The notes under the pieces were generated by a model. The model searched no databases. It saw nothing but the letters and a program-made list of their open reading frames with translations, and was not told where the DNA came from. Below are positions 17,801 through 51,252 of a stretch of 64,000 nucleotides of DNA, in pieces. A program made the position numbers and the translations under genes. Origin of the DNA: an uncultured Clostridium sp. (lineage in GTDB: Bacteria; Bacillota; Clostridia; TANB77; CAG-508); assembly GCA_948471115.1 (NCBI GenBank), contig CAOKRJ010000002.1:4805-68804 (forward strand). Reading direction: 5' to 3'. The stretch's first letter is position 1. Every line of letters starts with the position of its first letter.

Positions 17801-18037
17801 TTAGTCATCATCTATATCATTAAAAATTGGGTCATCAAAAAATTCTTTTAAGGTTATATCAAAACCAAAGCATATACGAATAATTGTAAGCAATTTAGGA
17901 TTTTGACTTGTACCATCAACTAAACTGTTAACTGTTGATTGATTCATTCCAGATAAAGTAGCAAGTTTGTTGATAGAAATATCTTTCTTTTTGCATAGAT
18001 ATATTATTCTTGATTTAACAGCTTGTTGTAAGTCCAT
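17801..18037 (-). CDS. XRE-family HTH regulator
   Basis: MDLQQAVKSRIIYLCKKKDISINKLATLSGMNQSTVNSLV is preceded by SD AAAGGAG. It is divergent from the promoter at 18100. Confidence 0.7.
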   Translation of the reverse strand: MDLQQAVKSRIIYLCKKKDISINKLATLSGMNQSTVNSLVDGTSQNPKLLTIIRICFGFDITLKEFFDDPIFNDIDDD

Positions 18038-18099
18038 AGCAAATTCTCCTTTCAAAATTAGTATAACAAATTATACCCTTGAATATTACCGACACATTG

Positions 18100-18128
18100 T
18101 TGACTTGTAAAAATAAAAAATATACAAT
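18100..18128 (+). promoter_or_regulatory. Sigma-A-type promoter flanked by TACCGACA direct repeats
   Basis: TTGACT-N17-TACAAT. TACCGACA occurs at 18087-18094 and 18128-18135. Confidence 0.5.
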
Positions 18129-18159
18129 ACCGACAGAATGGTAATAAGGAGGAAAATGT

Positions 18160-18729
18160 ATGAAAGAAAATCATAAAATTAAAATATTAGATGAGTTGTA
18201 TGAAATAAGAGAAGGAGAGGTTGAAAAGCAGTATATAGCAAAATATGGAGAGCCAGTAGAAATTGACAAAGCACACAAAGCAGATGATGAATTAGTAAAT
18301 TTTATGAAGAAATTTATAAAAGATGAAAAAGATATGCAAGAATTATTTAATAAAATAAATAACTATGAATTGAAAGCAATGGGAGAAATGTGTTTTTGGT
18401 ATAAACCATATTATAAGGCTGGATTTATTGACGCAGTATTACTAAAAAAACAGTTACAAGAAGAAAGAATTAAAAATAAATCTAATGAAGATAGTATTTA
18501 TGATAAATTTGATGATATATGGGACTATGTAGATAAAACAAAGCACAATAATTTAAAATCAAATGAATATTATAATAGCATTAAAAAAGAACTTATTGAA
18601 ATATATAGTAAATATCCTAGAGTAGAGGACTTTATTTACAATGAAAAAATTGAAGAATTTACACCAGAAGAAATGAAAGCAATTTTAAAAGTAATAAGTT
18701 TATACAATGATAGATTTACAATAGAGTAA
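18160..18729 (+). CDS. Hypothetical protein (paralogue pair A)
   Basis: Shares a FW(Y/N)K.YYK.GF.D...LKK core and overall layout with 18786-19427. Confidence 0.55.
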   Translation: MKENHKIKILDELYEIREGEVEKQYIAKYGEPVEIDKAHKADDELVNFMKKFIKDEKDMQELFNKINNYELKAMGEMCFWYKPYYKAGFIDAVLLKKQLQEERIKNKSNEDSIYDKFDDIWDYVDKTKHNNLKSNEYYNSIKKELIEIYSKYPRVEDFIYNEKIEEFTPEEMKAILKVISLYNDRFTIE

Positions 18730-18785
18730 GAAGAAATGTTTAAAATTGGTGTAAGAACAGGAAAGTCATTGTAGGAGGGTAAAAA

Positions 18786-19427
18786 ATGGAAAAAAGAGAA
18801 TATACAGTAAATGAGTTATTTGAAAATCAAGTTTTAAATGATATATACGAAACAAGAGGAGATGGACTACAAAGCTTATATATTAGTATGTATGGAAAAA
18901 CAGAAGAAATAACAAAAGTTGAAAAAGCAAAGAAAGAATTAGAAAACTTAATGTATCAATTAGTAAAAGATAAGGAAAAACAAAAACAATTATGGCTAAA
19001 ATTAGACAGATTTGAGGGTGCTATGTCTGGAGAAAGTAGTTTTTGGAATAAACAGTATTATAAATTAGGCTTTTTAGATAGAATATACCTAAAAAAAGAA
19101 ATAGCAGATAATAAAAGAAAATTCGTAGAAAATAATGTTGAAAATTTAGAAGATACTTTAATTTACAAAAGTATGTGTTTTATAAAAGAAATGTTAGGTT
19201 CAAATCTTTGGAATATAAAAAAATATAAAGAGATAGTACACAAAATGAGTAAAATAAAAGAAGAATACCCCAATGTAAAGGAATTTATAGAAAGAAACGA
19301 AATAGTAAACTTTACTAAAAAGGAAATAAAAGCATTAAGTGAATATCTAAAATTAGCTGATGATATGCAAGATATTGAGTTTATAGAAACTTTTAAATTA
19401 GGACTAAAAGATAATAGTTTGTTATAG
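18786..19427 (+). CDS. Hypothetical protein (paralogue pair B)
   Basis: See 18160-18729. RBS GGAGGG is present. Confidence 0.55.
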   Translation: MEKREYTVNELFENQVLNDIYETRGDGLQSLYISMYGKTEEITKVEKAKKELENLMYQLVKDKEKQKQLWLKLDRFEGAMSGESSFWNKQYYKLGFLDRIYLKKEIADNKRKFVENNVENLEDTLIYKSMCFIKEMLGSNLWNIKKYKEIVHKMSKIKEEYPNVKEFIERNEIVNFTKKEIKALSEYLKLADDMQDIEFIETFKLGLKDNSLL

Positions 19428-19471
19428 AGATAGAAATAACGAAACCTTATAAAAGAAAATAATAAATTGAC

Positions 19472-19506
19472 AGAGATATTAAGAAATTAGTATCTCTATT
19501 TTTTTT
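19472..19506 (+). terminator. Rho-independent terminator
   Basis: AGAGATA-N12-TATCTCT is followed by a T-run. Confidence 0.55.
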
Positions 19507-19538
19507 ATGCTTAAAAACAGGAAGGAGGAGTAAAAAAG

Positions 19539-19721
19539 ATGTCTAACACGAAGAATAATAAAGACAGAAAAGATAATAAAATAATAGAAAAGACTATTAT
19601 TGAACGAAAATATACAAATGAAATTACTCCTATTCAAGCTATATTACCATTAGTAATGGAAGAAATTGATAGGAAAAGGAAACAATACAGAAAAGAACAC
19701 CCAGAAGAATTTGAAGAATAA
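19539..19721 (+). CDS. Hypothetical small basic protein
   Basis: A 60-aa ORF with RBS GGAAGGAGGAG. Confidence 0.4.
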   Translation: MSNTKNNKDRKDNKIIEKTIIERKYTNEITPIQAILPLVMEEIDRKRKQYRKEHPEEFEE

Positions 19722-19818
19722 TCACATAATTGTAATTATAATGATTTTAAATATAATCAAATAGAGAAATGAACTAGAACAATCTAGTCTTTTTTAATTT
19801 ATAGGAGGTGGAAGAAAT

Positions 19819-21846
19819 ATGCTTATGAACAAAAATACTTACAGAGTTGGAATATATACAAGACTTTCAATAGATGACGGAACAAACGAAGAAAGTGTAA
19901 GTATTGACACACAAAAGAAAATATTAACAGAGTTTGTTGCTAAAAAAGGGTGGCAGATAGTAAAAATATATGTTGATGATGGTTATTCTGGAGGAAATTT
20001 TGAAAGACCAGATTTTAAACTAATGATACAAGATATTGAAAATAAAGAAATAGACTGTGTTGTTACAAAAGATTTATCAAGATTAGGAAGAAATTATATA
20101 GACTGTGGTTATTATTTAGAGATATATTTTCCAGAACACCAAGTAAGATATATTGCAGTAAATGATGGAGTAGATACAATAAGTAATTCATCAATGGACA
20201 TCACACCATTTAAAAATATATTGAATGAAATGTATGTAAAAGATATTTCAGTAAAAGTAAGTAGTGCAAAGAAAGCAAGATTACAAGACGGAAAGTATAT
20301 GACAACAATAGCTCCTATTGGTTATATGAAAGACCCACAAGATCATAATCACTTAATTATAGATGAAGAATATGCACCTACTGTAAAAAAGATATATGAA
20401 TTGTATAATAGTGGAAAAGGTACAAATTTTATTACAAACTATTTAGAGGACAATAAAATAATAAGACCGACAGAATATTGGTTAAGAAAAGGCTTAATGA
20501 AAAGTGTAGGAAAGAGAAATAAAAGCATTTATTACTGGAGCAATAAAACAATATTAGATATTTTATCTAACCCAGTATATAAAGGAGCAGTAGTAGGAAA
20601 TAAGACTAAAAAAGTTTCGCCTAAAAGCAAAAAGTTGATTAAAATACCAAAGGAGCAATGGACTGTTATAGAAGATATGCACGAGCCTATTGTTAGCAAA
20701 GAATTATTTGATAATGTGCAGAGAATAAGAGAAAATCATAAAATAATGTATCAGCACAAAATGAATGAAGAACGATATACAAATATATTCAGTAGAATTT
20801 TAAGATGTCCTTATGATAAAAGTATGACTTGCAGAAAGATAGACAATAGAGGAAATTCAGTAGATATTGAAAATAGAAAATATTGTTGTAGTGATAAATG
20901 CCCACATAGAACAAAAGACTGTAAAAATGTTTATATAAGAGCAGAAAAACTATACAATATTGTTTTAGAAGATATAAACAAATATGCAAATGACTTTTAT
21001 AATAATAAAGAAAACTATAATATTTTAGAGCAGAAATTGGAAGAACTAACAAATCAAAATACAAAAGTTTATGAGAATGAGAAAAACAAGTTGCAAAATA
21101 GACTAAACGAATTGAATCAGTTAATTACAGCTAGTTATGAAGATAAAGTATTTAAGAGAATAACAGAAGATACATTTATAATTATTATGAGTAAATACGA
21201 GAATGAACAAAAAGAAATAAAAGAAAAACTAGAGAATGTCATAAAAGAGTTAGAAACAACAAAACGAAATAATAATAATGCAATGAGTTTTAGTAAATTG
21301 TTAAAAGAATTTAAAGGAACAAGCGAATTGACAATAAGTACAATAGCAAATCTAATTGATAAAATAACTGTATTTCCTAGCGAAATTATTATAAATGAAA
21401 AAGGACAAAAAGAAAAAACACAAAAAGTTGAAATATGTTACAGATATGTAGGTTGTCTAATACCAACAACAATAAAGTTTGAAACAATAAATTATAAAAC
21501 AAGATATGCAGATAGAGTTTGCGAAAAATGTAATAAAACATTTACACCTACAACATCTACACAAAAATATTGTATAGACTGTAAAAATGAAGCTACAAAA
21601 TTAAGAAGAAAACAAAGATATAGAGAAAAAATCAAAGCACAGGGTGGAAATAAAGGGTACAAAGAAAGAACTTGTCAGCTATGTGGAAAAACTTATAAGC
21701 CAAATAGTTCGGGACAAAAATTTTGTAGTAATTGTAAAGAACAGGCTAGAGAGATATTAAAACACGAGTGGTATATTAAGAAAAAGGAAATAAGACAAGC
21801 TAAAAAGAAAGAAAAAGAAGATATGAAACAAAGACAGAGTGCATAA
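19819..21846 (+). CDS. Large serine recombinase (TnpX/TndX-like)
   Basis: YRVGIYTRLSIDDG has the catalytic Ser context, plus a resolvase and recombinase domain. The C-terminal coiled coil is followed by two CxxC..(Y/F)CxxC zinc ribbons. It abuts the right end of the nested element. Confidence 0.85.
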   Translation: MLMNKNTYRVGIYTRLSIDDGTNEESVSIDTQKKILTEFVAKKGWQIVKIYVDDGYSGGNFERPDFKLMIQDIENKEIDCVVTKDLSRLGRNYIDCGYYLEIYFPEHQVRYIAVNDGVDTISNSSMDITPFKNILNEMYVKDISVKVSSAKKARLQDGKYMTTIAPIGYMKDPQDHNHLIIDEEYAPTVKKIYELYNSGKGTNFITNYLEDNKIIRPTEYWLRKGLMKSVGKRNKSIYYWSNKTILDILSNPVYKGAVVGNKTKKVSPKSKKLIKIPKEQWTVIEDMHEPIVSKELFDNVQRIRENHKIMYQHKMNEERYTNIFSRILRCPYDKSMTCRKIDNRGNSVDIENRKYCCSDKCPHRTKDCKNVYIRAEKLYNIVLEDINKYANDFYNNKENYNILEQKLEELTNQNTKVYENEKNKLQNRLNELNQLITASYEDKVFKRITEDTFIIIMSKYENEQKEIKEKLENVIKELETTKRNNNNAMSFSKLLKEFKGTSELTISTIANLIDKITVFPSEIIINEKGQKEKTQKVEICYRYVGCLIPTTIKFETINYKTRYADRVCEKCNKTFTPTTSTQKYCIDCKNEATKLRRKQRYREKIKAQGGNKGYKERTCQLCGKTYKPNSSGQKFCSNCKEQAREILKHEWYIKKKEIRQAKKKEKEDMKQRQSA

Positions 21847-21914
21847 AAACACTTATTTTTTATAACTTGAAATTGTCGTTTCGGTGCATACTTTTGAACA
21901 CAGCAAGGGAACTA

Positions 21915-23606
21915 GCACCAGAAGGAACAGGATACAGATCAAAAACGAGATTTTCAAAATTTTATAATCTTCCAGAACTGATGTCTATGTTTAAAGAAAT
22001 AGCAGATATTCAAACAGCAGATACATTAAATCTACCAGTACCAAAAGTAAATGCTTACACAATAGATGTTGATGCAAGTGATATACAAAAGGGTATGGTA
22101 CAAGACTTAGCAAAAAGAGCAGAAAGAATTAGAAAGAAGCAAGTTAATTCAAAAACAGATAATATGCTTAGAATAACAAATGAAGGACGAAAGCTTGCAC
22201 TAGACCAAAGAATAATAAATGATATGCTACCAGATTATGAAAATGGAAAAGTAAATGTGTGTGCTAATAATATATATAAGATATGGGAAAAAACTAAGGA
22301 TAAAAAGTCAACACAGCTAGTGTTTTGTGATTTATCAACTCCCAAGAGTTTAGGTACAGAAGATAATCCATATGAAATGGAATTTTTAAATGGAGAGTGG
22401 TATTTAAAAGATAGACCATTTACGGATGTTTATACTGACTTAAAGAGAAAACTAATATCTAAAGGAATACCAGAAGATGAGATAGCTTTTATACATGACG
22501 CTACAACAGAAACAAAAAAGAAGGAACTATTTGCAAAGGTTAAGAGTGGAAATATAAGGGTTTTGATGGGTTCAACCTCTAAAATGGGAGCAGGTACAAA
22601 CGTACAAAATAAAATTAAAGCAATACACCATTTAGATGTACCATGGAGACCTAGTGATTTACAACAACGAAATGGTCGTGGAGTTCGTCAAGGAAATGAA
22701 AATGAAGAAATAGATATTTACACTTATGTTACAAAAGGAACATTTGATGCTTATTCTTATCAAACAGTAGAAAGAAAACAGAGAGGTGTATCACAAATAA
22801 TGACCTCAAAAGTAATATCACGTTCTGAGGAAGATATTGATGAAAAAGCACTTTCTTATGCTGAAATAAAGGCACTTGCTACTGGAAATCCATTGATAAT
22901 TGAAAAAGCAGAATTAGAAGAACAGAGTTCTAAGTTAAAAATATTAAAACAAAGTTATTTAAGTGAAATTTATAGACTTGAAGACGCAATAGTAAAATTT
23001 TATCCAGTAGAAATAAAGAACAATGAAGAATTAATTAGTAATATGCAAAAAGATTTGGAACTGGTTAAAGAAAATACAGAACTTAATAATGAGGACAAGT
23101 TTTCTCCTATAATTTTAAAAGGAAAACAATATGTAAAAAAAGAAGATGCAGGAAAAATGATACTTGAAATATGTAAAAGTAAGGAAAATAAAGAAATAGA
23201 AGAAATAGGTAAATATAGAGGGTTAAAAATGGAACTTGAAATTGTAGCAGGAGATTATATTTTAGCTTTAAAAGGAGAATCTGCATATAGTATAAAATTA
23301 GGAAAAGATGTCTTTGGAAATATAACGAGAATGGATAATGCTATTACTGATATAGAGAAAAAATTGAATAATACTAATAATGATCTAGAAAATTTAAAAC
23401 AGCAATTTGAAAATGCAAAAATACAAGTAAAAGTACCATTTGACAAAGAAAGAGAGTTACAAGAAAAAATTATACGATTGAATGAAGTAAATAAAGAACT
23501 TGAGATCAAGGACAATGAACACGAAATGGTAGATGATGAAATAGAGGAACAGGAAGATTATATTCCAGAAAAAGATAATAGAAGCTATGAATTAGAGGCA
23601 AGATAA
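21915..23606 (+). CDS. Giant methyltransferase/helicase protein, 3' part (SNF2 helicase C-terminal domain)
   Basis: APEGTGYRSKTRF.. continues the 12922 frame. The helicase C motif STSKMGAGTNVQ..H.LD.PWRPSDLQQRNGRG.RQGN is present. The tracked ORF start at 21867 lies in element-end sequence. Confidence 0.8.
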   Translation, partial: APEGTGYRSKTRFSKFYNLPELMSMFKEIADIQTADTLNLPVPKVNAYTIDVDASDIQKGMVQDLAKRAERIRKKQVNSKTDNMLRITNEGRKLALDQRIINDMLPDYENGKVNVCANNIYKIWEKTKDKKSTQLVFCDLSTPKSLGTEDNPYEMEFLNGEWYLKDRPFTDVYTDLKRKLISKGIPEDEIAFIHDATTETKKKELFAKVKSGNIRVLMGSTSKMGAGTNVQNKIKAIHHLDVPWRPSDLQQRNGRGVRQGNENEEIDIYTYVTKGTFDAYSYQTVERKQRGVSQIMTSKVISRSEEDIDEKALSYAEIKALATGNPLIIEKAELEEQSSKLKILKQSYLSEIYRLEDAIVKFYPVEIKNNEELISNMQKDLELVKENTELNNEDKFSPIILKGKQYVKKEDAGKMILEICKSKENKEIEEIGKYRGLKMELEIVAGDYILALKGESAYSIKLGKDVFGNITRMDNAITDIEKKLNNTNNDLENLKQQFENAKIQVKVPFDKERELQEKIIRLNEVNKELEIKDNEHEMVDDEIEEQEDYIPEKDNRSYELEAR

Positions 23607-38840: not shown

Positions 38841-39308
38841 TTATCCATAAATGTGAATGGTTACTTTCATATTCTGATGAAGATTAGAAAAAGTAAAAAG
38901 AACAGAATTGTTTCCATAGTGAGTTATACCGTCCACGAAGTAATACGTACCATTTGTGCTAATGAGATTATTTTTTTTGCTATCAATAAATGTAGCATTC
39001 TTGCTACCACCGTACGCAGTTGCAGTCACTCTGATAGGTTCCGTTACTGAACATTCAGTCACAATAGTTATGCCAACTCCACCAGAACCATCACTATTTA
39101 AAGGTACTGAAACCTTTGGATTCTGAGGAGTAACAGTTCCACTGTAATAACCCGATATGCTTGAATATGGAACAATTCCATCATCCTCAGAAGTAACTGT
39201 AACTTCAGGGATAACTCCATTTGTATCGGGTTCTGCAGCGAAAACCTCAAGAGGCATAGCAGTCATAAGTGATGCTGTAAGAAGGAACGCAAATAATTTC
39301 TTTAACAT
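38841..39308 (-). CDS. Hypothetical secreted protein
   Basis: Signal peptide is MLKKLFAFLLTASLMTAMPLEVFA. 155 aa. Confidence 0.6.
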   Translation of the reverse strand: MLKKLFAFLLTASLMTAMPLEVFAAEPDTNGVIPEVTVTSEDDGIVPYSSISGYYSGTVTPQNPKVSVPLNSDGSGGVGITIVTECSVTEPIRVTATAYGGSKNATFIDSKKNNLISTNGTYYFVDGITHYGNNSVLFTFSNLHQNMKVTIHIYG

Positions 39309-39478
39309 AATAAATTCTCCTTTATTGGTGGCTCCACAGCTATTATATAGAAAAGAAACAAGAAGTTTCTAATCTACCTAAACAAACAATTATTATTGCT
39401 TAATTTCTCATATAAATAATAACACAAATAATAAATAACAACATAAAAAGACACATTTAGACACAAATTTTATTTTTT

Positions 39479-39507
39479 TGTAACTTTTTGTAGAGTTAGA
39501 TGTCTAT
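39479..39507 (+). promoter_or_regulatory. ECF-sigma-type promoter upstream of the glycosyltransferase gene
   Basis: TGTAAC-N17-GTCTAT(ATATATGAG) is nearly identical to the element at 41219-41247. Confidence 0.5.
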
Positions 39508-39582: not shown

Positions 39583-41130
39583 ATGAAAGATAATAAAAAG
39601 AAGTATTTAGATAAGAAAAAAATAATATTTATAATACTAATAAATATAGGAATTATAATAAGAATTGTTAATTTTCCAAATGCAATTTCAGAAATAAATG
39701 GTGATGAAATAATGACAATTATAAATGCCAAAGACATAGCAGATACTGGTAAAGATGCAAATGGAATATCATTTCCTGTCTATTTGCAAGGATGGGGAGG
39801 ACAAAGTGTGATGCTATTATATTTAATGGCATTAATTTTTAAGATTTTTAACTATTCATTATTTACAGCAAGATTACCTATGTTAATTGTTAGTATAATA
39901 TCACTATTTGTGTTTTACGATTTTACGAAGAAAATTACAAAGAATGAAAAAATTGCTCTAATTGGACTAGCTGTACTTGTAATTTCTCCTTGGCATATAT
40001 TACAGTCTATTTGGGCATTAGACTGTAATATGTTTCCACATTTTTTATTAATAGCAATGGATTTACTATATACAGGAATTACAAAAAGTAATAATAAACT
40101 AATATATATTTCAATGATATTTTATGCAATAACATTATATTGTTATGGAGTGGCAATATATTTTGTACCATTATTCCTATTAATATTTTGCATTTATTTA
40201 GTTAAGAATAAAATTATAAATTATAAAAATGCAATAATTTGCATTATTTTATTTTTAGTATTTGCAATGCCTATAATACTAATGTTTGCAATAAATGCTT
40301 TACATATAAATACACAAATAAAAATTTTCAATATAACTATTCCATATTATCCTAATTTATCAAGAACTCAAGATATGTTATTTTTTTCTGATAACAAACT
40401 ATCTCAGTTATTTAATAACATAATTGCAACAATAGGAGTAATGTTTATACAATCAGATGGAGAAGAATGGAATTCATCAGCTATATTTGGAACTACATAT
40501 CATATAACGATTGTATTTATAATAGTAATTATTATAAGTATTATTAAAACTATAGCAAAAGAAAAGAAGAAAATAAATATAGAATTATTTTTAGTGCTTA
40601 TATGGTTGAGTATAAGTATATTAACAGGATTTATTATAAACAACACTAATATAAACAGATTGAATTCAGTATGGTATATATTATTGATTTTATCAGCAAA
40701 GGGAATATATATAATTTATGAATATATTAAATATAAAAAAGCATATATAGTCATAACTATTAGTATTTATGTGATACTATTTATAAGTTATAATATATAT
40801 TTCTATTCATATTATTCTAATGTAATTGATAAATCAGTCTGTTTTTCAAAAGGATTTTACCAAGCATTAAGTTATGTGAAAAATACAGATAAAAAAGAAG
40901 TGTTTTATGATAATATAATGGATGATGGTAATCTAAGATTATATTTAGATTTTAATCATGATGATAATAAAATATATACAGAAATTAAAAATGATAATAA
41001 ATTAAAAGAAAAAATAGATAATTTAAATGATGATGAAGCAATTATTATATATGTAAAATTTGAAGATTATCATACAGAATTAAATAGCTATAGAATAGGA
41101 GATTATAAAATAATATATAATGACAATTAG
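39583..41130 (+). CDS. Polytopic membrane glycosyltransferase (GT39/ArnT/PMT-like)
   Basis: More than 10 predicted TM helices. The N-terminal ..FPN..SEINGDE.. loop pattern resembles ArnT/PMT-type enzymes. This is a moderate call. Confidence 0.55.
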   Translation: MKDNKKKYLDKKKIIFIILINIGIIIRIVNFPNAISEINGDEIMTIINAKDIADTGKDANGISFPVYLQGWGGQSVMLLYLMALIFKIFNYSLFTARLPMLIVSIISLFVFYDFTKKITKNEKIALIGLAVLVISPWHILQSIWALDCNMFPHFLLIAMDLLYTGITKSNNKLIYISMIFYAITLYCYGVAIYFVPLFLLIFCIYLVKNKIINYKNAIICIILFLVFAMPIILMFAINALHINTQIKIFNITIPYYPNLSRTQDMLFFSDNKLSQLFNNIIATIGVMFIQSDGEEWNSSAIFGTTYHITIVFIIVIIISIIKTIAKEKKKINIELFLVLIWLSISILTGFIINNTNINRLNSVWYILLILSAKGIYIIYEYIKYKKAYIVITISIYVILFISYNIYFYSYYSNVIDKSVCFSKGFYQALSYVKNTDKKEVFYDNIMDDGNLRLYLDFNHDDNKIYTEIKNDNKLKEKIDNLNDDEAIIIYVKFEDYHTELNSYRIGDYKIIYNDN

Positions 41131-41218: not shown

Positions 41219-41247
41219 TGTAACATTTTTAGTTTTCAGTTGTCTAT
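41219..41247 (+). promoter_or_regulatory. ECF-sigma-type (autoregulatory) promoter
   Basis: TGTAAC-N17-GTCTAT(ATACATGAG) lies directly upstream of the ECF sigma gene. Confidence 0.5.
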
Positions 41248-41267: not shown

Positions 41268-41741
41268 GTGAATGAAGAAATGTATGAAAAATATGCTTCA
41301 AAGATATATAAATATATTTATTCATTATGCAAAAATAATGATATAGCTGAGGAAATATTACAAGATACATTTTATAATGCAATGAAAAATACAGAGAGTT
41401 TTAAAGGAAATAGTAGTATTTATACATGGTTGTGTAAAATAGCAAAAAACAATTGGAATAATTATTTAAAAAGAAAAAGTAAAATAGAATTTGTTCCTTT
41501 AGAAGAAAATACACTTTATAATTCGGATTTTGAAAATATAGAAGATAAACAAGAATTATTAAGAGTTTATCAAGAGATAAACAAATTAGATTCCACAACT
41601 AAAGAAATTTTGCTTATAAAAATGCATTCAAATTTAACTTTTAAAGAAATAGGAAATTTATTTAATAAATCTGAACAATGGGCAAGAACTAGGTTTTATA
41701 GAGGTAAATTAAAATTAAAGGAGGAATTGGAAAATGAATAA
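41268..41741 (+). CDS. ECF-type sigma-70 family RNA polymerase sigma factor
   Basis: Region 2 is (..AEEILQDTFYNAMKN...F.G.SS..TWL..IAKN) and region 4 is (LTFKEIGNLFNKSEQWARTRFYRGK). Confidence 0.8.
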   Translation: MNEEMYEKYASKIYKYIYSLCKNNDIAEEILQDTFYNAMKNTESFKGNSSIYTWLCKIAKNNWNNYLKRKSKIEFVPLEENTLYNSDFENIEDKQELLRVYQEINKLDSTTKEILLIKMHSNLTFKEIGNLFNKSEQWARTRFYRGKLKLKEELENE

Positions 41742-42684
41742 AAAGATTTGTAATATTGTATTAGACTTACTTCCCATATATGTAGAAGATGATGTAACTA
41801 ATGACACAAAAGAATTTATAGAAGAACATATAAAAGAGTGTAGTAATTGCAAAAATAAATTAGATATTATGAAAATGGATATTGTTAAAGAAGAAGACAA
41901 GTTAAAAAATGATACTAAAATTGAAGTGGAAAAAATAAAAAAGGTCAATAAAAAGCTACAAATGCATAAAGGTATATTACAAGTTAGTAGTATTATTATA
42001 TCAATAATAGCTATAATATTTTTAGGCTGTACAATATATAAAGAATTTAATAAGACTTTATATGATAATATTCAAGAAATTTACGATGAAAATATGAAAT
42101 TAGACAATTATCATTTGACTCAAAAAAATATATACAAAAATTATTTTGAAACAGGAAGTTTTGAAATAAGTAATGATATTTATTGTAAAGATAGTAAATT
42201 CAAAATATATGAAAATTTTAAAAGTATGAATGCAGATAAAACTGAAAAAGTAAGATATGGCGAAATAGGTTCAGATAAAATTACAGAAATAGATATTAAT
42301 GATAATAGTATTAAAGAAATACACATTAATGATGAAAATAGTACAGATGTTATTAAACATTCTTCTTATGTTGATAATAAATATATATTAGACGATATAG
42401 GATATCATGCAAGTTTAGATGACTTTAAGAATATAGATTATAAGGATATGGAAATAAAATTTTTTGAAGAAAGAGAATGGTATGTTTATAGAGAGGGTAA
42501 CGAAATAAATTACAATGAATATTGGATTGATAAAAATAACTTAACTGATATAAGACTAATAGAAAGTAATGAAAAGTTTTACAGGGAAACATCATTTGTT
42601 TTTGAAAGAAATGTTGTAACAGAAGAAAAATTGAATATAAATTATGATACTACAAATTTTAAGAGAATAGAATTATATGATTAA
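41734..42684 (+). CDS. Anti-sigma factor (zf-HC2) with TM helix and extracytoplasmic domain
   Basis: It overlaps the sigma gene stop. HIKECSNCKNKLD zinc-finger motif and a single TM helix are present. Confidence 0.7.
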   Translation: MNKKICNIVLDLLPIYVEDDVTNDTKEFIEEHIKECSNCKNKLDIMKMDIVKEEDKLKNDTKIEVEKIKKVNKKLQMHKGILQVSSIIISIIAIIFLGCTIYKEFNKTLYDNIQEIYDENMKLDNYHLTQKNIYKNYFETGSFEISNDIYCKDSKFKIYENFKSMNADKTEKVRYGEIGSDKITEIDINDNSIKEIHINDENSTDVIKHSSYVDNKYILDDIGYHASLDDFKNIDYKDMEIKFFEEREWYVYREGNEINYNEYWIDKNNLTDIRLIESNEKFYRETSFVFERNVVTEEKLNINYDTTNFKRIELYD

Positions 42685-42704
42685 GGAGCATATAAGAAAG
42701 AATA

Positions 42705-43421
42705 ATGATAAAAATATTAATCGTAGATGACAATTTAGAATACGCAATTAAAATAATGAATAATATAAATAAAACAAATCAAGATATACAGGTTTATAAT
42801 ATAGTGGAAAATGAAAAGAAGGCTTTGAATATATTGAATAATAGGAATGATATAGATATAGTTATATTAAGTTTAAATATAAATACAGAAATTGAATTTA
42901 TAAAACTACTAAAAGATAAGGAAAAATATAAAAAATCTATTATAGTAATATCAGAAAATTTATACAATTATAATAAATTATGTATAAATGATATAATTTT
43001 TTCTATAATATATAAAAATATCAATATGAATGAAATTATAAAAAAGATAAATGAATTGATAGAATTGAAAAATAAAATAGAAGTAGAATATACAGTAAAA
43101 GAAAGGATTATTAACGAAATTCTTAATTTAAATTATGATATGTCTAATTTAGGAACACAATATTTAGTTACAGCAATAGAATATATTATTATTAATATGC
43201 CAAATAAAGACTTTAATAATCTAAAGACAGATGTATATCCTTTTGTAGCAGAATTTAATAATACATCAGTTCATAATGTAAAAAATAATATAGTAAGAGC
43301 TACTGATAAAATGTATTGTCAATGTGAAATAGAAAAGTTGAAAAAGTATTTTCATTATTACAATGATACAAAGCCAGATACAAGAACTATTATAAGGACT
43401 GTAATAAATAAAGTATCATAA
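42705..43421 (+). CDS. Spo0A-C-terminal-domain DNA-binding protein with degenerate receiver domain
   Basis: The C-terminus aligns with the Spo0A effector domain (G.QYL..AIEY, VYPFVAEFNNTSVHNVKNNIVRAT, KPDTRTIIRTVINKV). The receiver keeps DD but has LSL where the phospho-Asp is expected. Confidence 0.65.
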   Translation: MIKILIVDDNLEYAIKIMNNINKTNQDIQVYNIVENEKKALNILNNRNDIDIVILSLNINTEIEFIKLLKDKEKYKKSIIVISENLYNYNKLCINDIIFSIIYKNINMNEIIKKINELIELKNKIEVEYTVKERIINEILNLNYDMSNLGTQYLVTAIEYIIINMPNKDFNNLKTDVYPFVAEFNNTSVHNVKNNIVRATDKMYCQCEIEKLKKYFHYYNDTKPDTRTIIRTVINKVS

Positions 43422-43623
43422 TTATTCTGATTGTTCCCTTTTCTATTGTTTCAAAATAAAAGTAAACAAAAGAAGATATTTATTATAATATTAATGAAAA
43501 GAATGAATATTATACAACCCTTACATACACCATAATACATTATATAAAAATATAAAATACATTACATAAAAGAGTTAAAAGGATATTTTATTTACGTTAT
43601 AATAGTGTAGCAGGGAGGTTGAA

Positions 43624-43956
43624 ATGAGTATATTTGAAGAACGATTATGGAAAAAAGATAAAATTTTAAGACGAAGAATAGAAATAGATAATACATTGTA
43701 TGAAGGTTTACAAAAAATTGTAGAAGAATATGATACAAATATAAGTAATTTGGTAAATATATCAATAGAAAATTTAATTAAAACAGAAAAAGTTAAATTA
43801 TATGAAAGAGCAGAAGATGAAATTGTAGAGGCTCATAATTTTTCGATAAGAGAAGGATTTTATAGAGAGTTAGAAAAGTTAAGAGCAAAGTATGGAATAT
43901 CTGTATATAAGTTAACGAATATTGCAATATACAATGCTTTGAATGATAGAATATAA
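43624..43956 (+). CDS. Hypothetical protein
   Basis: A 110-aa ORF with RBS GGGAGG and a terminator-like hairpin downstream. Confidence 0.5.
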   Translation: MSIFEERLWKKDKILRRRIEIDNTLYEGLQKIVEEYDTNISNLVNISIENLIKTEKVKLYERAEDEIVEAHNFSIREGFYRELEKLRAKYGISVYKLTNIAIYNALNDRI

Positions 43957-44290
43957 AGGACTAGAATAATCTAGTTCTTTTTTTAATGAAAATTAGTACA
44001 TAAATATTCATTATTTAGATATACACATAATAGAGAGTATTTTACAACACGCAAGGGTTGACTAATCATAAAAAACTAACTATAATTATAAATGAATTAA
44101 AATATAAAATATTCAGGAAGGAGGAGAAAATGTAAGATACAAAAGATAGTATTTGGTCGAGTAATAGTAGATAAATTTATTCAATAAATAAACTTGTGTC
44201 TATAAAAAAAGTATGAGAAGATATTTTTTATTAAAAACTGTGTACTCAGTAATGGCAAAACAAAAAAATATTCATAGCACTGTATGAATA

Positions 44291-44569
44291 TTAAGACTCA
44301 AAATATTTAGCTGTATCTTCAAATAATTGATTGTAAGTAATTCCAAGAATATCACAAATGGCTTTCTGCTCAAAATCACGAATAAACAAAGTATTAGCTT
44401 CAATACGAGATATATCAGAATGATATAAAGTAACACCTAATAAAGCAAGTTTATTAGATAGTTCCACTTGGGAAATTCCTTTTTGTTCTCTATATTTTTG
44501 AATGTTAGCACCAACAATATTTGAATAGCCATTTAACTTTTTCGTTTTCATATATATAGTATTACTCAC
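44291..44569 (-). CDS. XRE-family HTH regulator
   Basis: IVGANIQKYREQKGISQVELSNKLALLG. It is a paralogue of 45130-45387. Confidence 0.75.
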   Translation of the reverse strand: MSNTIYMKTKKLNGYSNIVGANIQKYREQKGISQVELSNKLALLGVTLYHSDISRIEANTLFIRDFEQKAICDILGITYNQLFEDTAKYFES

Positions 44570-44762
44570 CTCATAAAAAATACTTTTAACTAATAATACT
44601 ATATTTTTTTAAAATATTCTTTGCGTACATAGAAAAGGAAAAATTAGAAGGAAGAATGAGGTATTATAGGTAAAAGCTTTATATAGTAGTTCATTGAGAT
44701 TTTTATAAATCAGAAAACTATATGATGTAAAGGATGAAAATAATTAATAGGAGGTTTTTAAA

Positions 44763-45083
44763 ATGCAAAAAAAAGGAATGACAGAGTTAATTAGTAATTT
44801 TATAAATTTAAATAAACAAAATATGAATAAGGAAACAGAGGATTTTCTAGATGACTTTGAAGAGTTTGTTGAAATAAGGCTTGATATGGTATGTAATAAA
44901 TTAGAAAAGATGGAAAAGTATAAGAAATTGCAAGACAAATATAATAAGGCACATGATTACTTTTCAACAAGAATACTAGAAACAGAAGTAAATGAATTTG
45001 AAAGAAATATAAATAAAACACATGAATTGGAGAAAGTTTATATTTACTTACAAGGATTGATTGATGGAAGAACAACAGTATAA
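44763..45083 (+). CDS. Hypothetical protein divergent from XRE
   Basis: A 106-aa ORF with RBS AGGAGG. Confidence 0.5.
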   Translation: MQKKGMTELISNFINLNKQNMNKETEDFLDDFEEFVEIRLDMVCNKLEKMEKYKKLQDKYNKAHDYFSTRILETEVNEFERNINKTHELEKVYIYLQGLIDGRTTV

Positions 45084-45129
45084 AGCCTAATAGTTATATA
45101 AGTTTAATAACATTGTAAAATAATAATAA

Positions 45130-45387
45130 TTAATCAAATATATTATCAGTATCTTCAAATAATTGTTCATAGGATACATTGAAAACTTTACAAAATGCAA
45201 TTATTTCAAAATCCTTTAATAACAATTTTTGATTTTCTATTTGGGAAATATCCGAATGATAAATATCTATACCTAGTAGTGCCAGTTTATTTGATAACTC
45301 TCTTTGGGTAAGGTGGCGAAGTTCTCTATATTTCTTTATATTTTTGCCTATAACATTCGATTTACCATTAAATTTTTTAACTCGCAT
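45130..45387 (-). CDS. XRE-family HTH regulator
   Basis: VIGKNIKKYRELRHLTQRELSNKLALLG. Confidence 0.75.
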   Translation of the reverse strand: MRVKKFNGKSNVIGKNIKKYRELRHLTQRELSNKLALLGIDIYHSDISQIENQKLLLKDFEIIAFCKVFNVSYEQLFEDTDNIFD

Positions 45388-45499
45388 TTATGACAATTCC
45401 TTTCTATTTATAATTATTATTTTATATTTTACAATATTTATTTGCCATTCTTGGTAGACTATTTAAACCTAAAGCAGAAAATTATAAAGTAGGGGAAAT

Positions 45500-45790
45500 A
45501 TGGAAGAATTAGAATTAATTTTAGTAGATGAAATTTGTAAACAACAGGATTTTGATGAAATTTTATTACAAATAGCTAGACCTAAAAAAAACAATACTAT
45601 AAAAAGAATAATAAAACTAATTGATGAGAATGTTGAAATAGATGAAAAAGTAAAAAGAAAAATATATGATGGGATTTTTGAATATGTCAATGATATAAAT
45701 GAGAATCTAAAAGTTAATATTAAGGAAATTTATTCATATGCAGTAAAGGAAACTATAAAGAAATTTAATAATAAAGAAGGAGAAGAGTAA
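45500..45790 (+). CDS. Hypothetical protein divergent from XRE
   Basis: A 96-aa ORF with RBS-like GGGGAAATATGG. Confidence 0.45.
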   Translation: MEELELILVDEICKQQDFDEILLQIARPKKNNTIKRIIKLIDENVEIDEKVKRKIYDGIFEYVNDINENLKVNIKEIYSYAVKETIKKFNNKEGEE

Positions 45791-45794
45791 TAAT

Positions 45795-46475
45795 ATGTAT
45801 CCAAAAGTTAAAATAATAATTGCAGATGATAATAAAGAGTTTTGCAATTTTCTAGCAAAATATTTAAGAAAATATAATAATATAGAAATTTTAGGAATTG
45901 CAAATACTGATGAGGAAGAAATTGATATGATAGAAAACTTGAAACCAGAAATTGTAATAACAGATCTATTAAGAAATAATAGATATACAGGTTTAGATAT
46001 TATAAAAAAGTATTATGGTACAAAAAACTCTCCTGAGTTTTTAGTTATTTCTGCTGATAGAGAGCAGGATGTAATAACTGATGAAATAAAAGTTGCAGGA
46101 TATATAAAAAAGCCTTTTATAGATTATAATATAACATATGAAAGTTTAATTAAAATAAGAAATCAATTAATAGATAAAGAATATTTAGAATGGAACGATA
46201 GATACCATAATAATGAAATTATTGAATTAAATAAATACTTTATAGATAAAGAATTTAAAACAATGGAAAAATTAGGAATAAAGATTAAAAATAAAATTTA
46301 TACGGAATGTGAGTTTGAAGTAGTATATATTCAATTATTGAAGTACTATGAAGATGAAGATATGGACGAGGAAGAATTAATGAAAGTTAAAGATTTAGAA
46401 AATACAGGAGTTAGTAGAAAAGACTATAATGATTTAATGAAAAAGTTTGGAAATATCATACAGCGTAGAGAATGA
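45795..46475 (+). CDS. Response-regulator receiver protein with Spo0A-like receiver and non-Spo0A C-terminal region
   Basis: KIIIADDNKEF...LGIANTDEEEI...PEIVITDLL...KKPF parallels the Spo0A receiver (VADDNRE, GVAYNG.E, VLDIIMP, KPF). No HTH is recognisable. Confidence 0.65.
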   Translation: MYPKVKIIIADDNKEFCNFLAKYLRKYNNIEILGIANTDEEEIDMIENLKPEIVITDLLRNNRYTGLDIIKKYYGTKNSPEFLVISADREQDVITDEIKVAGYIKKPFIDYNITYESLIKIRNQLIDKEYLEWNDRYHNNEIIELNKYFIDKEFKTMEKLGIKIKNKIYTECEFEVVYIQLLKYYEDEDMDEEELMKVKDLENTGVSRKDYNDLMKKFGNIIQRRE

Positions 46476-46982
46476 GAATTATAGATTAGAAACAATAATT
46501 ATATAATAAAAAGTATATAGAATGTCAAAAAATGAGGTTCTATATACTTTTTTTATTTTCGCAAAAACCGACAGATTTCGACAAGATAGATATGGTATAA
46601 TATTTACATAATATATTTACAAAAGCGTAAAACTAATTATTAATTTATTAAAACGTATCATTTCAATAAAAAGTAACAGTAAAAAAGTTTTATAAGTTAA
46701 AAGTTAGAATTTTATTAAATACACCAACTTATAAAATTTTTTGAATTGTAAATGGGGGTTATTTTCAAAGTTTTAGAGTGATGTGTTGGTGTATAATAAA
46801 TACAAGCTTTTTAATTAAATATTATTATGCCAAAAAAGAGATTAGATTTATTTTTGTAAATAACAAGAATAAGTGTGATTTCTTTTTTTTTAAGTATGAA
46901 CAAAACAAATTAATTTTTACCAATGGTTGTCGTAGTCCTCCTAGTTCAATTTCAAAATTTGAAATTGAATGGAGGAAAAAAT

Positions 46983-47444
46983 TTGAAAGATAAGTCTAAA
47001 AAAATAAAAGTATATGTACTTCTTAATAATGATTTAAAAACTATTACTACATATAAAAGTTTGAGTGGAACGGCAAAGTCTGCAAAAATGAATAAAATTA
47101 TAAATAATGAATTTCAAAGACGAAAAAATGAAGATAAATCACAAAGAAATGAATTTGATAGACACATAGAACATTTACAACTGACAGAATGCCAAATAAA
47201 TATAAGAGCAGTACATAAAGCACCTAGTATGGAAGAAATGTTATTAGAGAAAGAGGGAGAACGAGAAATTATCAGAAAAATTTGGGATTTACCAATACCA
47301 CAGAATAGACGAGTATATATGTTTATTGTAGATGAGTTTTCACTCACTGAAATAGCAAGAATAGAAAAACGTGATGTTTCGGTTATTAAAAGAAGTGTTG
47401 ATGCAGGAATTAGAAAATTACAAAAAAATTTAAAAAATTTTTAA
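46983..47444 (+). CDS. Sigma-70 region-4-like HTH regulator (conjugative-transposon Orf7-like)
   Basis: RRVYMFIVDEFSLTEIARIEKRDVSVIKRSVDAGIRKLQKNL. The likely start is TTG 46983 after GGAGGA. The tracked ORF begins at 46923. Confidence 0.55.
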   Translation: MKDKSKKIKVYVLLNNDLKTITTYKSLSGTAKSAKMNKIINNEFQRRKNEDKSQRNEFDRHIEHLQLTECQINIRAVHKAPSMEEMLLEKEGEREIIRKIWDLPIPQNRRVYMFIVDEFSLTEIARIEKRDVSVIKRSVDAGIRKLQKNLKNF

Positions 47445-47821: not shown

Positions 47822-48193
47822 GTGGAAAGAGAGATATATAGAGGGGAAATATATTATGCAAGATTATATGAAACAGTAGGAAGTGAACAGTCTGGAGTTA
47901 GACCAGTTGTAATAGTTCAAAATAATACAGGAAATAGATATTCAAAAACAGTTATTATTGTTCCATTAACAAAGAAAATTGAAACAAATGAAATACAGCC
48001 AACACATGTTATAGTTAAGGCATTTGGAAATATAAAATATGATTCAACAATACTAACTGAGCAAGTAAGAACAATAGACAAAAAAAGACTGGGAGAAAGA
48101 ATTGGAACATTACCACATAGATATATAAAATACTTAGATGAAGCATTAAAAATTGCACAAGGAATAAAGAATTATAGTGATATTAAGAAATAA
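47822..48193 (+). CDS. mazF: MazF/PemK-family endoribonuclease toxin
   Basis: GEIYYARL...SEQSGVRPVVIVQNNTGNRYSKTVIIVPLT is canonical MazF/NdoA. GTG start follows GGAGGA. Confidence 0.85.
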   Translation: MEREIYRGEIYYARLYETVGSEQSGVRPVVIVQNNTGNRYSKTVIIVPLTKKIETNEIQPTHVIVKAFGNIKYDSTILTEQVRTIDKKRLGERIGTLPHRYIKYLDEALKIAQGIKNYSDIKK

Positions 48194-48615: not shown

Positions 48616-48881
48616 ACAATAGATGAATAATATAAAAAAGTGAGAATATGATTTTGTTAAGGAGGAATGCTTATGAAATGTAAATATGAAATAAATTATA
48701 CTTTTCCAAAATCATTATCATTTGAAGAAATAAAGGAAATTGTGTGCGAGAAAATTGCAAAGTTAATGATTTTAGATGAAAAATAAAAATCACACATTTT
48801 TATTTTTGATAAATAAAAAATATAATAATGGAGGTATTAAAATAGGCATTTAGCCGAATCAATAGGAAAGGAAAGTTGATT

Positions 48882-50861
48882 ATGGTAATAAATGTATTTA
48901 AAGAAGGAAATGATGAAAATGATGCATTAGATAAGAATAATTATAGTATAAAAGAGGGAGATGATGATAGTGAGGTACAAAAAATAAAATCACATTTAGA
49001 TATAACATATTTAAAATATGTTTCTGATAACATTAAATATTTATTAAAACTTAATATTACAAATGATAATGAGTGCTTTGAAAAAAGTAATAAATATACT
49101 AAAGATAAAGAAACAGGAGATAAATATAGAGTAATTTTATATATAAGACTTTCTGTTGAGGATGGAGATGTAATTGATGGAGATGTTAGCAAGAGTATAA
49201 GAAATCAATTGTTAATTTTATTAGATGAATGTGAAAAGAGAGGTTGGGTTGTTGTTGCAATATTTTGTGAAGAAGGAATTTCTGGTGCAGATGATAATAG
49301 ACCAGAATGGAATAAGTCTTTAAAGTTTTGTGAATATGGAAATACAGAAATTGTATTGTGCAAAAGCCAATCTAGATTTTCAAGAAGTATGGAAATGATA
49401 GAAAAATATTTACATAACGAATTTATTACATGGAATATAAGATTTGTAGGGTTAGTAGATAGTACAGACACATCTGTTATAGGAAACAAAAAAACTAGAC
49501 AGATAAATGGATTAGTAAATGAGTGGCAAGTAGAGGATCAATCAATAAACATAAGAGCAGTATTAAAAAATAAACAATCTAATGGTTTATTTACTGGTGC
49601 ATTTGCTCCATACGGTTATCTAAAAGACCCAAAAGATAAATATCATTTTATAATAGATGAAGATGCAGCAAGAGTTGTTAGAAAAATTTTCGAAATGTAT
49701 GCAAGTGGAAACGGAGCAACTAAGATATGTTTATATTTGAATGAGAATAAAATACCAATTCCTAGTATATATAAACATCAAAAAGGTTTAAAATTCAATT
49801 GTCCAACTGTTAAATATGATCAAAGAATAACATACCAAGTTGAAAAAGGAGATAGCTTAGTTGCAATAGCAGATAAATATCAATCAACAGTAAAAGAAAT
49901 AATACAATATAATTCAATGGAAAGTGAAGAAATTACTGAAGGTCAGATAATAATAATACCAGTTGTTCATGTATGGAGAACAAATACAATATATAATCTG
50001 TTAAAAAATGAGGTATATATTGGAACATTAATACAACATAAAAATGAAATTATAAGTTATAAAAATAAAAAAGAAAGGAGTATTCCAAAAGAGCAAAGGA
50101 TAGTAGTTCCACATTGTCATGAAGCTATAATAGATAAAGAAACATGGAATATAGTAAGTGCAAGATTTGAAAGATATAGAAAAGTAAAATCAAATAAAAA
50201 AGGAGAAATATCATTGTTTTCTGGAAAATTGAAATGTGGATGTTGTGGACACGCATTATATAGAGATTATCATGAGAGGGGAAATAAAACATATTCTTAT
50301 TGGTTATGTGGAAATAGATATGGAACTGCTAAATTTTTATGTAACAATAAAAAACTTGTTAATGAACAGGAGATAGAGAGAATATTACTAGATGAAATTA
50401 ATAAACAATTGGATATATATTATGATAAATCATTAGTAGAAGAAAAGTATTATGAACAGAAAGTAGTTAATTCTTTAGAAGATGAAATAAAATTATTACA
50501 AAAAGAAAAGAAGGAATTAGAAAATAATATAAGTAAAAAGCAAAACACAATATCATTACTATATGAAGATAGAGCGAATGGAATTATTGATTTAACAGAA
50601 TTTACAATGATAAAAAATAAAAATAGTATAGATATTGGACATTTTCAAGAAAGACTAAGAAATATAGAAAGTGAATTATTAGACTTAAATAAGAAAAAAC
50701 TAGAAAAGTATGATACAGAAAAAATATTAAAAAAATATAAAAAAATTGAAAGTCTAACTAGAAGTATATTGGATGAATTTATATCAAAAATTCACATAGG
50801 CTATTATAATCCAGAAACAAAAACAAGAAAGATTGAAATAGAGTGGAATATAAGTACCTAA
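48882..50861 (+). CDS. Large serine recombinase with N-terminal acidic extension and embedded LysM-like segment
   Basis: YRVILYIRLSVEDGD catalytic region, recombinase domain, a zinc-ribbon-like CGCCGH...C and a coiled coil. LysM-like YQVEKGDSLVAIADKYQSTVKEIIQYN...GQIIIIP lies at 49827-49964. It is the last gene before attR. Confidence 0.85.
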   Translation: MVINVFKEGNDENDALDKNNYSIKEGDDDSEVQKIKSHLDITYLKYVSDNIKYLLKLNITNDNECFEKSNKYTKDKETGDKYRVILYIRLSVEDGDVIDGDVSKSIRNQLLILLDECEKRGWVVVAIFCEEGISGADDNRPEWNKSLKFCEYGNTEIVLCKSQSRFSRSMEMIEKYLHNEFITWNIRFVGLVDSTDTSVIGNKKTRQINGLVNEWQVEDQSINIRAVLKNKQSNGLFTGAFAPYGYLKDPKDKYHFIIDEDAARVVRKIFEMYASGNGATKICLYLNENKIPIPSIYKHQKGLKFNCPTVKYDQRITYQVEKGDSLVAIADKYQSTVKEIIQYNSMESEEITEGQIIIIPVVHVWRTNTIYNLLKNEVYIGTLIQHKNEIISYKNKKERSIPKEQRIVVPHCHEAIIDKETWNIVSARFERYRKVKSNKKGEISLFSGKLKCGCCGHALYRDYHERGNKTYSYWLCGNRYGTAKFLCNNKKLVNEQEIERILLDEINKQLDIYYDKSLVEEKYYEQKVVNSLEDEIKLLQKEKKELENNISKKQNTISLLYEDRANGIIDLTEFTMIKNKNSIDIGHFQERLRNIESELLDLNKKKLEKYDTEKILKKYKKIESLTRSILDEFISKIHIGYYNPETKTRKIEIEWNIST

Positions 50862-50876: not shown

Positions 50877-50892
50877 TTAAAAACTAGCACAT

Positions 50893-51252
50893 GATGGAAT
50901 GATAAAGAATGGAACAGGTTTTACAGATATATATAATTATAGAAATTCTAGATATTTTATAAACACAGTAAAAGAGGCAAGAAAAGCTTCTGTGGATAGG
51001 GAGCTAGTTATATTTGCAGGTGCATGCCAAAGCTTTTTTGAAGCAATTATGGAATCAGGAGCAAACTTTGCCTCATCTCCAGCAAGAGTATTAATAGATT
51101 TTATGGATCCATTAACAATTGCAGAAAAAGTTGCAATAACCTCAGAAGAAAAAAATATTACTATGAAAGAAATATCATATTTACTAAAAGACGATAATAA
51201 AAGAGTAGGAGGAATAACCTCAAGGGGAAGAAAGAAAAAATATACAATATAA
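50893..51252 (+). CDS. yabG: YabG sporulation-specific protease, 3' portion
   Basis: DGMIKNG...YNYRNSRYFINTVKEARK...LVIFAGACQSFFEAIMESGANFASSPARV matches B. subtilis YabG (AYRHSKHFVETVQTARK, LVIFAGACQSHFESLIRAGANFASSPSRV). Confidence 0.85.
   Translation, partial: DGMIKNGTGFTDIYNYRNSRYFINTVKEARKASVDRELVIFAGACQSFFEAIMESGANFASSPARVLIDFMDPLTIAEKVAITSEEKNITMKEISYLLKDDNKRVGGITSRGRKKKYTI

Follow-up and report, generated by a model that had tools for sequence, protein, structure and literature searches.

Two Spo0A-like genes on one integrative conjugative element in yabG probably encode independent orphan response regulators

Does a mobile element that lies within the sporulation gene yabG carry a divided version of the sporulation regulator Spo0A? 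This question is raised by a stretch of 64,000 nucleotides from an uncultured gut Clostridium sp. (contig CAOKRJ010000002.1), referred to below as the window, in which a single integrative conjugative element (ICE) contains two genes with Spo0A-like products. The first product, here termed ProtA, combines a receiver that lacks the phospho-acceptor Asp with a Spo0A-type DNA-binding domain, and the second, ProtB, combines a Spo0A-type receiver with a C-terminal part that is unrelated to the Spo0A DNA-binding domain. A sequence-only reading of this locus had proposed that the two form a "split Spo0A" through which mobile DNA manipulates host sporulation. Our analysis bears out the domain assignments behind this proposal and argues against the pair: we consider it probable that ProtA and ProtB act independently, as orphan response regulators in separate modules of the ICE.

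ProtA (238 amino acids; 42705..43421, plus strand) has the domain order of Spo0A (TIGR02875), with a Spo0A_C-type helix-turn-helix domain behind the receiver. Its residues 138-236 matched Pfam Spo0A_C (PF08769) with 33.9 bits, against a cut-off of 25, and a profile of the C-terminal domain of the ProtA family, compared with the whole PDB, had as its sole matches 1LQ1 and 1FC3, both Spo0A DNA-binding domains (E ~2e-6). The family profile was needed for this result, as a PDB search with the single ProtA sequence did not find the Spo0A DNA-binding domain. The domain is diverged, and ProtA as a whole scored only 31.6 bits with the spore_0_A equivalog TIGR02875, for which the cut-off is 200. In the AlphaFold2 model (pLDDT 89), a five-stranded receiver is followed by a five-helix bundle; Foldseek matched the receiver part with a probability of 1.0. 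Searches with full-length models returned receiver matches only, and were uninformative for the effector domain of ProtA and the C-terminal domain of ProtB. At the place of the acceptor Asp (D56 in B. subtilis Spo0A), ProtA has Ser56 ("VILSLN" versus "ILLDLKMP" in its relatives), and two loop residues are deleted, while the acidic pair D8/D9, S83 and K104 are retained. Despite its fold, the receiver scored 25.3 bits with Pfam Response_reg, under the cut-off of 30.2, and lacks the central Asp among the five active-site residues that, along with the PF00072 score, mark members of this family.

ProtB (226 amino acids; 45795..46475, plus strand) matched Response_reg (PF00072) with 32.3 bits, above the same cut-off, and its active site is complete (D11, D12, D57, S86 and K106-P107), as expected of a receiver. 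The best NCBIfam match was to the N-terminal half of spore_0_A (63.1 bits, covering the receiver half only and below the equivalog cut-off of 200 bits), and the next family scored 31. In a single-sequence search of the PDB the best matches were Spo0A receivers (45.5 bits), and a ProtB family profile had Spo0A receivers as its top four matches (51, 50.6, 49.5 and 45.5 bits), the next one being at 38. The ProtB receiver is hence closer to that of Spo0A than to any other solved receiver. Only two of five positions in receiver helix 1, which we take to be partner-specificity positions, are identical in the alignment of ProtB with Bacillus Spo0A. The C-terminal ~100 amino acids, in turn, had no Pfam or PDB match; the possibility that they are a diverged Spo0A_C domain was rejected, since hhalign gave a probability of 0.7% against the DNA-binding domain of ProtA. 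Pfam scans of 34 ProtB relatives returned only weak and inconsistent C-terminal matches (DUF5928, DUF2201, GMT-wHTH), a PHROGs search gave nothing useful, no ProtB relatives were found in IMG/VR, and plasmids yielded generic receiver matches only. ProtB thus differs from Spo0A in having no DNA-binding domain, and both genes differ from spo0A in being located on mobile DNA. The sequence-only reading had named profile searches that fail to support its two domain calls as one outcome that would refute it; both calls were upheld, including the absence of the acceptor Asp from ProtA, the live Spo0A-type receiver of ProtB and its unrelated C terminus.

The notion that the two proteins form a pair did not withstand the comparison of related loci. 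At ~20 ProtA-family loci, ProtB relatives were absent from the surrounding 8-10 kb, and the neighborhoods of 13 ProtB-family loci were likewise free of ProtA relatives; the two genes occurred together only in this ICE and in near-identical copies of it. Their receivers are 22% identical, which reflects generic homology only. Together with separate transcription units and modules, a receiver that died recently and a recognition helix that differs from that of Spo0A, all of which are described below, these data speak against a "split Spo0A".

ProtA is the last gene of an operon that starts with genes for an extracytoplasmic function (ECF) sigma factor (41268..41741, plus strand; Sigma70_r2 and r4 domains, SigM subfamily) and an anti-sigma factor with a zf-HC2 domain (41734..42684, plus strand). 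These two genes overlap by 8 nt, and a gap of 20 nt separates the second from ProtA. The first predicted terminator is located at 43955-43980, after the next small gene. RNA was inspected in runs that hold the region, mostly mouse-gut metatranscriptomes; two RNA contigs (42492-42983 and 42974-44090) cover this part, and the junction between the anti-sigma and ProtA genes is spanned. RNA depth over ProtA was low. The alignment of upstream regions from the window and its relatives revealed an ECF-type promoter, TGTAAC-N17-GTCTA, before the operon (41219..41246, plus strand), with a second copy (39479..39506, plus strand) before a gene for a PMT_2-family membrane glycosyltransferase (39583..41130, plus strand). 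These are the only two occurrences in the window, against 0.10 expected, a count that is not independent since the pattern was derived from the same sequences; its recurrence before ECF sigma genes in other loci (L010, L011, L037 and L022) is independent. A further cassette gene, orf155 (38841..39308, minus strand), encodes a small protein of 155 amino acids with a signal-peptide-like N terminus. The complete cassette, that is, orf155, the PMT_2 gene, the sigma and anti-sigma genes and a ProtA-like gene, recurs in L010 and L011 among metabolic neighbors, with no ICE genes in view, and the sigma/anti-sigma/ProtA-like trio recurs in L037.

The same intergenic region contains a perfect tandem repeat, AGACACA-TTT-AGACACA, with a period of 10 bp (39449..39465, plus strand), located 14 bp upstream of the PMT_2 promoter. 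L010 and L011 have an identical 17-mer in the corresponding intergenic position, although the flanking proteins there are only 48-66% identical to those of the window. In 1LQ1, Spo0A is bound head to tail to tandem 0A boxes of seven bases with a three-base spacer; because its box and spacer geometry resembles this arrangement, we propose the AGACACA repeat as a candidate operator for ProtA. orf155 stood out by its contig depth, which was 470-8,500 in four metatranscriptomes, against 3-40 for the neighboring genes. Separately, RNA contigs from three runs had one base less in a poly-T run of orf155 (at 38971), so that the C-terminal reading frame is altered, and copies of 155 and 127 amino acids were noted in other contigs. 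A search of Rfam with the highly expressed 38.8-39.4 kb region found nothing.

The recognition helix of ProtA suggests that its binding sites are not those of Spo0A. In a gapless profile alignment to 1LQ1, the ProtA segment HNVKNNIVRATDKMY is identical at 3 of 15 positions to the Spo0A recognition helix SRVERAIRHAIEVAW, so that the conserved helix of Spo0A proteins is not found in ProtA. The residues E213, R214 and R217 of Spo0A, which reportedly make base-specific contacts (Zhao et al. 2002), align with K, N and V. The ProtA family has a helix signature of its own, S-x-H-N-[VI]-K-x-x-I, in which S188, K193 and I196 are invariant and H190 is nearly so. In the Spo0A proteins of B. subtilis and C. 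difficile, every DNA-contacting residue is conserved and the same TGTCGAA box is recognized (PMC3485338). Because of the low identity of the helix and the replaced contact positions, occupancy of 0A boxes by ProtA, as had been suggested in the sequence-only reading, is unlikely. The window contains 4 perfect 0A boxes against 2.08 expected, which is chance level and no enrichment.

The loss of the acceptor Asp appears to be confined to a small clade. Ser56 and the loop deletion were seen only in the window ProtA and two near-identical relatives (87-90% identity), whereas the canonical Asp ("LLD[LY]KMP") was kept in 17/17 other aligned relatives (43-70% identity). Between the window ProtA and P0002, the closest pair, the receiver differs at 17 of 120 positions and the DNA-binding domain at 1 of 101, as compared with a receiver/DNA-binding domain divergence ratio of ~1.1 to 1.6 in relatives with live receivers. 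The receiver of the dead clade thus diverges far faster than the effector domain, and the loss of the Asp is therefore judged to be recent; the receiver is drifting, and the DNA-binding domain is under strong constraint. With its receiver fold kept, its Asp replaced and its output domain under purifying selection, ProtA corresponds to an atypical response regulator. Like HP1043 and ChxR, which are phosphorylation-independent response regulators with degenerate receivers, it has kept the receiver fold, lost the Asp and conserved the DNA-binding domain; it differs from them by its Spo0A_C-type output, the very recent loss and the existence of close relatives that are canonical.

The ProtA domain type is abundant. 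An exhaustive profile search retrieved 1,072 clusters at 50% identity, mostly of ~240 amino acids, some of them shorter or consisting of the effector domain alone. The Asp was absent from 17 of 69 full-length family representatives, and many more lacked the acidic pair; on account of these 17 representatives, pseudo-receivers are considered recurrent in the wider family. A genome scan located ProtA relatives only in metagenome-assembled genomes from uncultured bacteria; most of these were gut-associated Clostridia, and Bacilli and Erysipelothrix contributed one genome each. No relatives were found in IMG/VR, ProtA had no plasmid match and its C-terminal domain had no GenBank phage match. In the index, the ProtA open reading frame (ORF) is listed for 98 blocks of the collection, and each of the 22 contigs with this gene that were read had it intact. 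A regulator of 237 amino acids (L006:12641-13354, minus strand) is encoded on a different ICE, one with a ProtA relative; its C terminus looks by eye like a further diverged Spo0A_C-type domain, while precomputed Pfam data list Response_reg only. This protein was considered as a ProtB homologue and rejected, as only the first ~55 receiver residues align (34% identity).

ProtB belongs to a different module. Upstream of it, a divergent gene for an Xre-type helix-turn-helix repressor (45130..45387, minus strand) is paired with the ProtB-family gene in every context seen, namely, in 13/13 ProtB-family loci examined. In L012-L016 the Xre protein is 88-90% identical to that of the window, and ProtB there only 55-67%. 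The window has, after ProtB, genes for a small protein that resembles sigma factor region 4 (46923..47444, plus strand), presumably with a Tn916 Orf7-like role, a MazF/PemK toxin (47822..48193, plus strand) and an integrase; the same order was found in 7/13 loci, where the integrase is of the tyrosine type, as opposed to the serine type of the window. Five other ProtB-family loci have a protein of 193 amino acids and a reverse transcriptase downstream. One ProtB relative alone was listed in 985 blocks of the collection. Because the Xre/ProtB module recurs across many elements, ProtB belongs to the core of the control region in a common family of gut mobile elements and is not sporulation-directed cargo.

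Most of the 567 or more ProtB relatives have 326 amino acids, and their first ~100 residues correspond to a separate ORF of 96 amino acids in the window (45500..45790, plus strand), which represents the N-terminal helical domain of the ProtB family. This ORF ends with TAA TAA, and ProtB starts 4 nt further on, in the +1 frame, behind an AAGGAG motif. Both ORFs are intact and lie under a single RNA contig that covers 44105-46375 continuously. In some ProtB relatives the N-terminal part is missing altogether. Two further observations concern the module: the MazF/PemK toxin (47822-48193) has no recognizable antitoxin gene, an ORF of 43 amino acids alone being located upstream, and a conserved ORF of ~37-39 amino acids (48667-48786, plus strand) directly before the recombinase could encode a directionality factor.

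Taken together, these data suggest the following mechanism. The level of ProtA would be set by the autoregulated ECF promoter and not by phosphorylation; ProtA would bind its own operator, for which AGACACA-N3-AGACACA beside the cassette promoters is the candidate, and not 0A boxes, and would regulate its own cassette with the glycosyltransferase and the highly expressed, putatively secreted small protein. ProtA most likely controls its own cassette independently of phosphorylation. The intact Spo0A-type receiver of ProtB would be phosphorylated by a host kinase or another phosphodonor, and the N- and C-terminal domains of the ProtB system, apparently not DNA binding, would relay this signal to the control of ICE excision and transfer. 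ProtB and the 96-amino-acid ORF most likely constitute the signal input of the ICE, and crosstalk with sporulation kinases, in which ProtB would act as a phosphoryl sink or as a competitor for Spo0A kinases, is possible.

Several points weigh against this explanation. The operator candidate is a single conserved 17-mer from two lineages and is absent from L037. Contigs assembled from metatranscriptomes may hold contaminating DNA, and their depth is a rough measure only. The missing Asp might just as well hold ProtA permanently inactive, and control of the cassette by ProtA is something that we infer. For ProtB, no kinase gene was found nearby, and its output domains have no recognizable function, with low model confidence for the N-terminal domain and no match for the C-terminal one.

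The location of the ICE bears on the alternatives. The window is AT rich (20-31% G+C), and the region ~245-50889 is a single ICE of 50.6 kb. It encodes ParA/ParB, SpaA-type surface proteins, two MobA/VirD2-type relaxases (one at 25950), HU, a PrgI-family protein (33765), a TraG-type P-loop ATPase (35507), a sortase, a CHAP cell-wall hydrolase (37222) and two large serine recombinases. Relaxase, ATPase, PrgI protein, hydrolase, integrase and defined ends are the features of a conjugative transposon of Firmicutes, and by its gene set the ICE may be called Tn1549/CTn5-like. A yabG 5' fragment (1 to ~270) runs off the window start, the stretch up to attL being 1..244 (plus strand), and the 3' fragment starts at attR (50890..51252, plus strand). 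An intact yabG of 275 amino acids from a related contig aligns to 10-244 and 50890-51238 of the window with an overlap of 3 bp, and because both halves match in this way, we conclude that the ICE splits yabG cleanly after "...ILVITGH". The sequence-only reading was therefore right in placing the element inside a sporulation gene. To the right of the ICE, the yabG 3' fragment is followed by the host sporulation genes veg, sipL, yunB and lonC. Other copies of the ICE have a yabG 5' fragment of 157 amino acids ~285 bp before ParA. Imperfect inverted repeats, TATACCGAAAAAT and ATTTTTTCGGTATA, are present at the two ends of the element, and the gene for a large serine recombinase with an inserted LysM domain (48876..50861, plus strand) abuts the right junction, at 28 bp from attR. 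Insertion into a coding sequence and a recombinase at the junction are features of intervening elements of sporulation genes (skin/yin type).

The alternative that survives best, which we nonetheless regard as unlikely, couples the ICE to sporulation: the ProtB receiver, host Spo0A~P at a pair of 0A-like boxes, or both would tie excision to the onset of sporulation, and yabG would be rebuilt in the mother cell, as occurs with skin, SPbeta and yin. The clean insertion and the junctional recombinase fit this idea, as does a tandem CGACA-N5-CGACA (46569..46583, plus strand), which follows the ProtB terminator, lies 12 nt upstream of the extended -10 element TGGTATAAT and contains in its second half a perfect 0A box, TTCGACA (46577-46583). 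The CCGACA box is 22 nt upstream of the -10 hexamer, a spacing that we take to resemble that of Spo0A-activated promoters such as spoIIG. A perfect 0A box is present at the homologous place in L012-L015 and L047-L049, where it is the sole one in these loci of 7-21 kb. However, the tandem pattern was defined only after being seen, and ProtB-family loci with other downstream modules read TTGACT or TTGGTCA at this place, so the "0A box" may be a mere variant of a -35 element. RNA contigs from two metatranscriptomes run leftwards from 50890 into yabG 5' sequence (TATAAACCAGATATACTTGTTATTACAGGT), and such uninterrupted yabG transcripts, joined exactly at 50890, were found in samples that also hold ICE transcripts; excision or a mixture of strains would explain them equally well, as ICE-free strains in the sample can supply intact yabG RNA. 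In C. botulinum, yin excises from yabG during sporulation and shifts its timing (PMC10747680). Against this alternative, yabG is non-essential for spore formation, and the same ProtB module also stands beside tyrosine integrases in elements where no interrupted sporulation gene was seen.

Somewhat more doubtful still is the generalization that, in a very widespread family of ICEs of gut Clostridia, a Spo0A-mimic receiver and a 0A-box promoter before the sigma-like, MazF and recombinase genes monitor or perturb the sporulation phosphorelay of the host. If this were true, the link would, in the element described here, time yabG excision to sporulation or, by titration, keep phosphoryl groups or receiver dimers from Spo0A.

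That the two proteins reprogram sporulation, with ProtA occupying host 0A boxes free of phosphorylation and ProtB draining phosphoryl groups from Spo0A kinases, is very improbable. The Spo0A_C domain without an acceptor Asp, the similarity of the ProtB receiver to those of Spo0A and the position of the ICE in yabG would agree with it, and there are precedents in the receiver-less spo0A homologues of gut phages (PMC10294663), in DevI of ICEBs1, which delays sporulation (PMC8032392), and in yin of C. botulinum, which is associated with earlier sporulation (PMC10747680). The recognition helix argues against it, given that true Spo0A proteins keep all DNA-contacting residues across distant species (PMC3485338), as do the lack of co-inheritance, the recent death of a receiver whose relatives are mostly ordinary live regulators, the connection of ProtA to an ECF sigma operon and the chance-level number of 0A boxes. 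The idea that ProtA is a functionless, decaying remnant may be set aside as hardly credible, since the lost Asp and loop residues, the fast-evolving receiver and the low RNA depth that would favor it are opposed by an ORF that is intact in 22/22 contigs, a DNA-binding domain with a single change with respect to P0002, a confidently folded model and a transcribed gene.

Spo0A-type domains on gut mobile elements have already been documented. Homologues of spo0A without a receiver are found in human-gut phages (Schwartz et al. 2023, PMC10294663), and PF08769 is enriched on mobile elements of gut Firmicutes (Jiang et al., bioRxiv 10.1101/214213). ProtA would likewise be a mobile Spo0A-type effector that was freed from phosphorylation control, but it is not of the phage type: it keeps a folded, dead receiver of 120 amino acids, is located on an ICE and is wired to an ECF sigma operon. 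On Tn6105/CTn5-like elements of C. difficile, large serine recombinases are accompanied by genes for an orphan response regulator and a sigma-like protein (Brouwer et al. 2011, PMC3158075). When compared by gene layout only, they resemble our ICE in the presence of an orphan regulator and a sigma-like protein within the recombination and regulation region, and their two genes are likewise uncharacterized. The skin element in sigK and yin in yabG share with this ICE the insertion into a mother-cell sporulation gene and the large serine recombinase at the junction, and yin even has the same target gene; both are prophage-like remnants, whereas the element described here, known from sequence, is a complete conjugative element of 50.6 kb. 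DevI of ICEBs1 and the Rap proteins of plasmids and ICEs interfere with the host Spo0A pathway (PMC8032392, PMC3035606), but these proteins are unrelated to ProtA and ProtB.

Further features of the region were recorded. A second mobile element of ~9.4 kb (~12400-21860), with genes for an AAA_25 ATPase, a relaxase (15557-16951), a ParB-like protein and a serine recombinase (19819-21846), is apparently nested in a gene for an SNF2-like helicase (10723-12396 and 21867-23606). In NODE_514, another ICE copy, the stretch from ParA to ProtA is shorter by 8,992 bp. The LysM domain (amino acids 320-362) inside the recombinase domain of the 48876-50861 product is unusual and was also seen in other ICE copies. 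The yabG locus resembles an insertion hotspot (L017:831-5432; L022:2672-9716): one such related contig has yabG pieces of 41, 275 (apparently intact) and 67 amino acids, and in the other, an additional yabG fragment and three ECF sigma/anti-sigma pairs precede the ICE.

Spo0A-like genes that share an element do not necessarily work as one system. Earlier reports of mobile Spo0A-type effectors were limited to a statistical enrichment and to truncated phage genes; the present case gives such an effector a defined circuit, namely, an ECF sigma operon and a candidate operator. The ProtA family, with more than 1,000 clusters, was seen here only in uncultured bacteria and is so far unstudied, and its receivers have died repeatedly. 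ProtB defines a control module that is common among gut conjugative elements and uncharacterized. If its receiver does sample sporulation kinases, horizontal gene transfer and spore formation in the gut would be connected directly at the molecular level.

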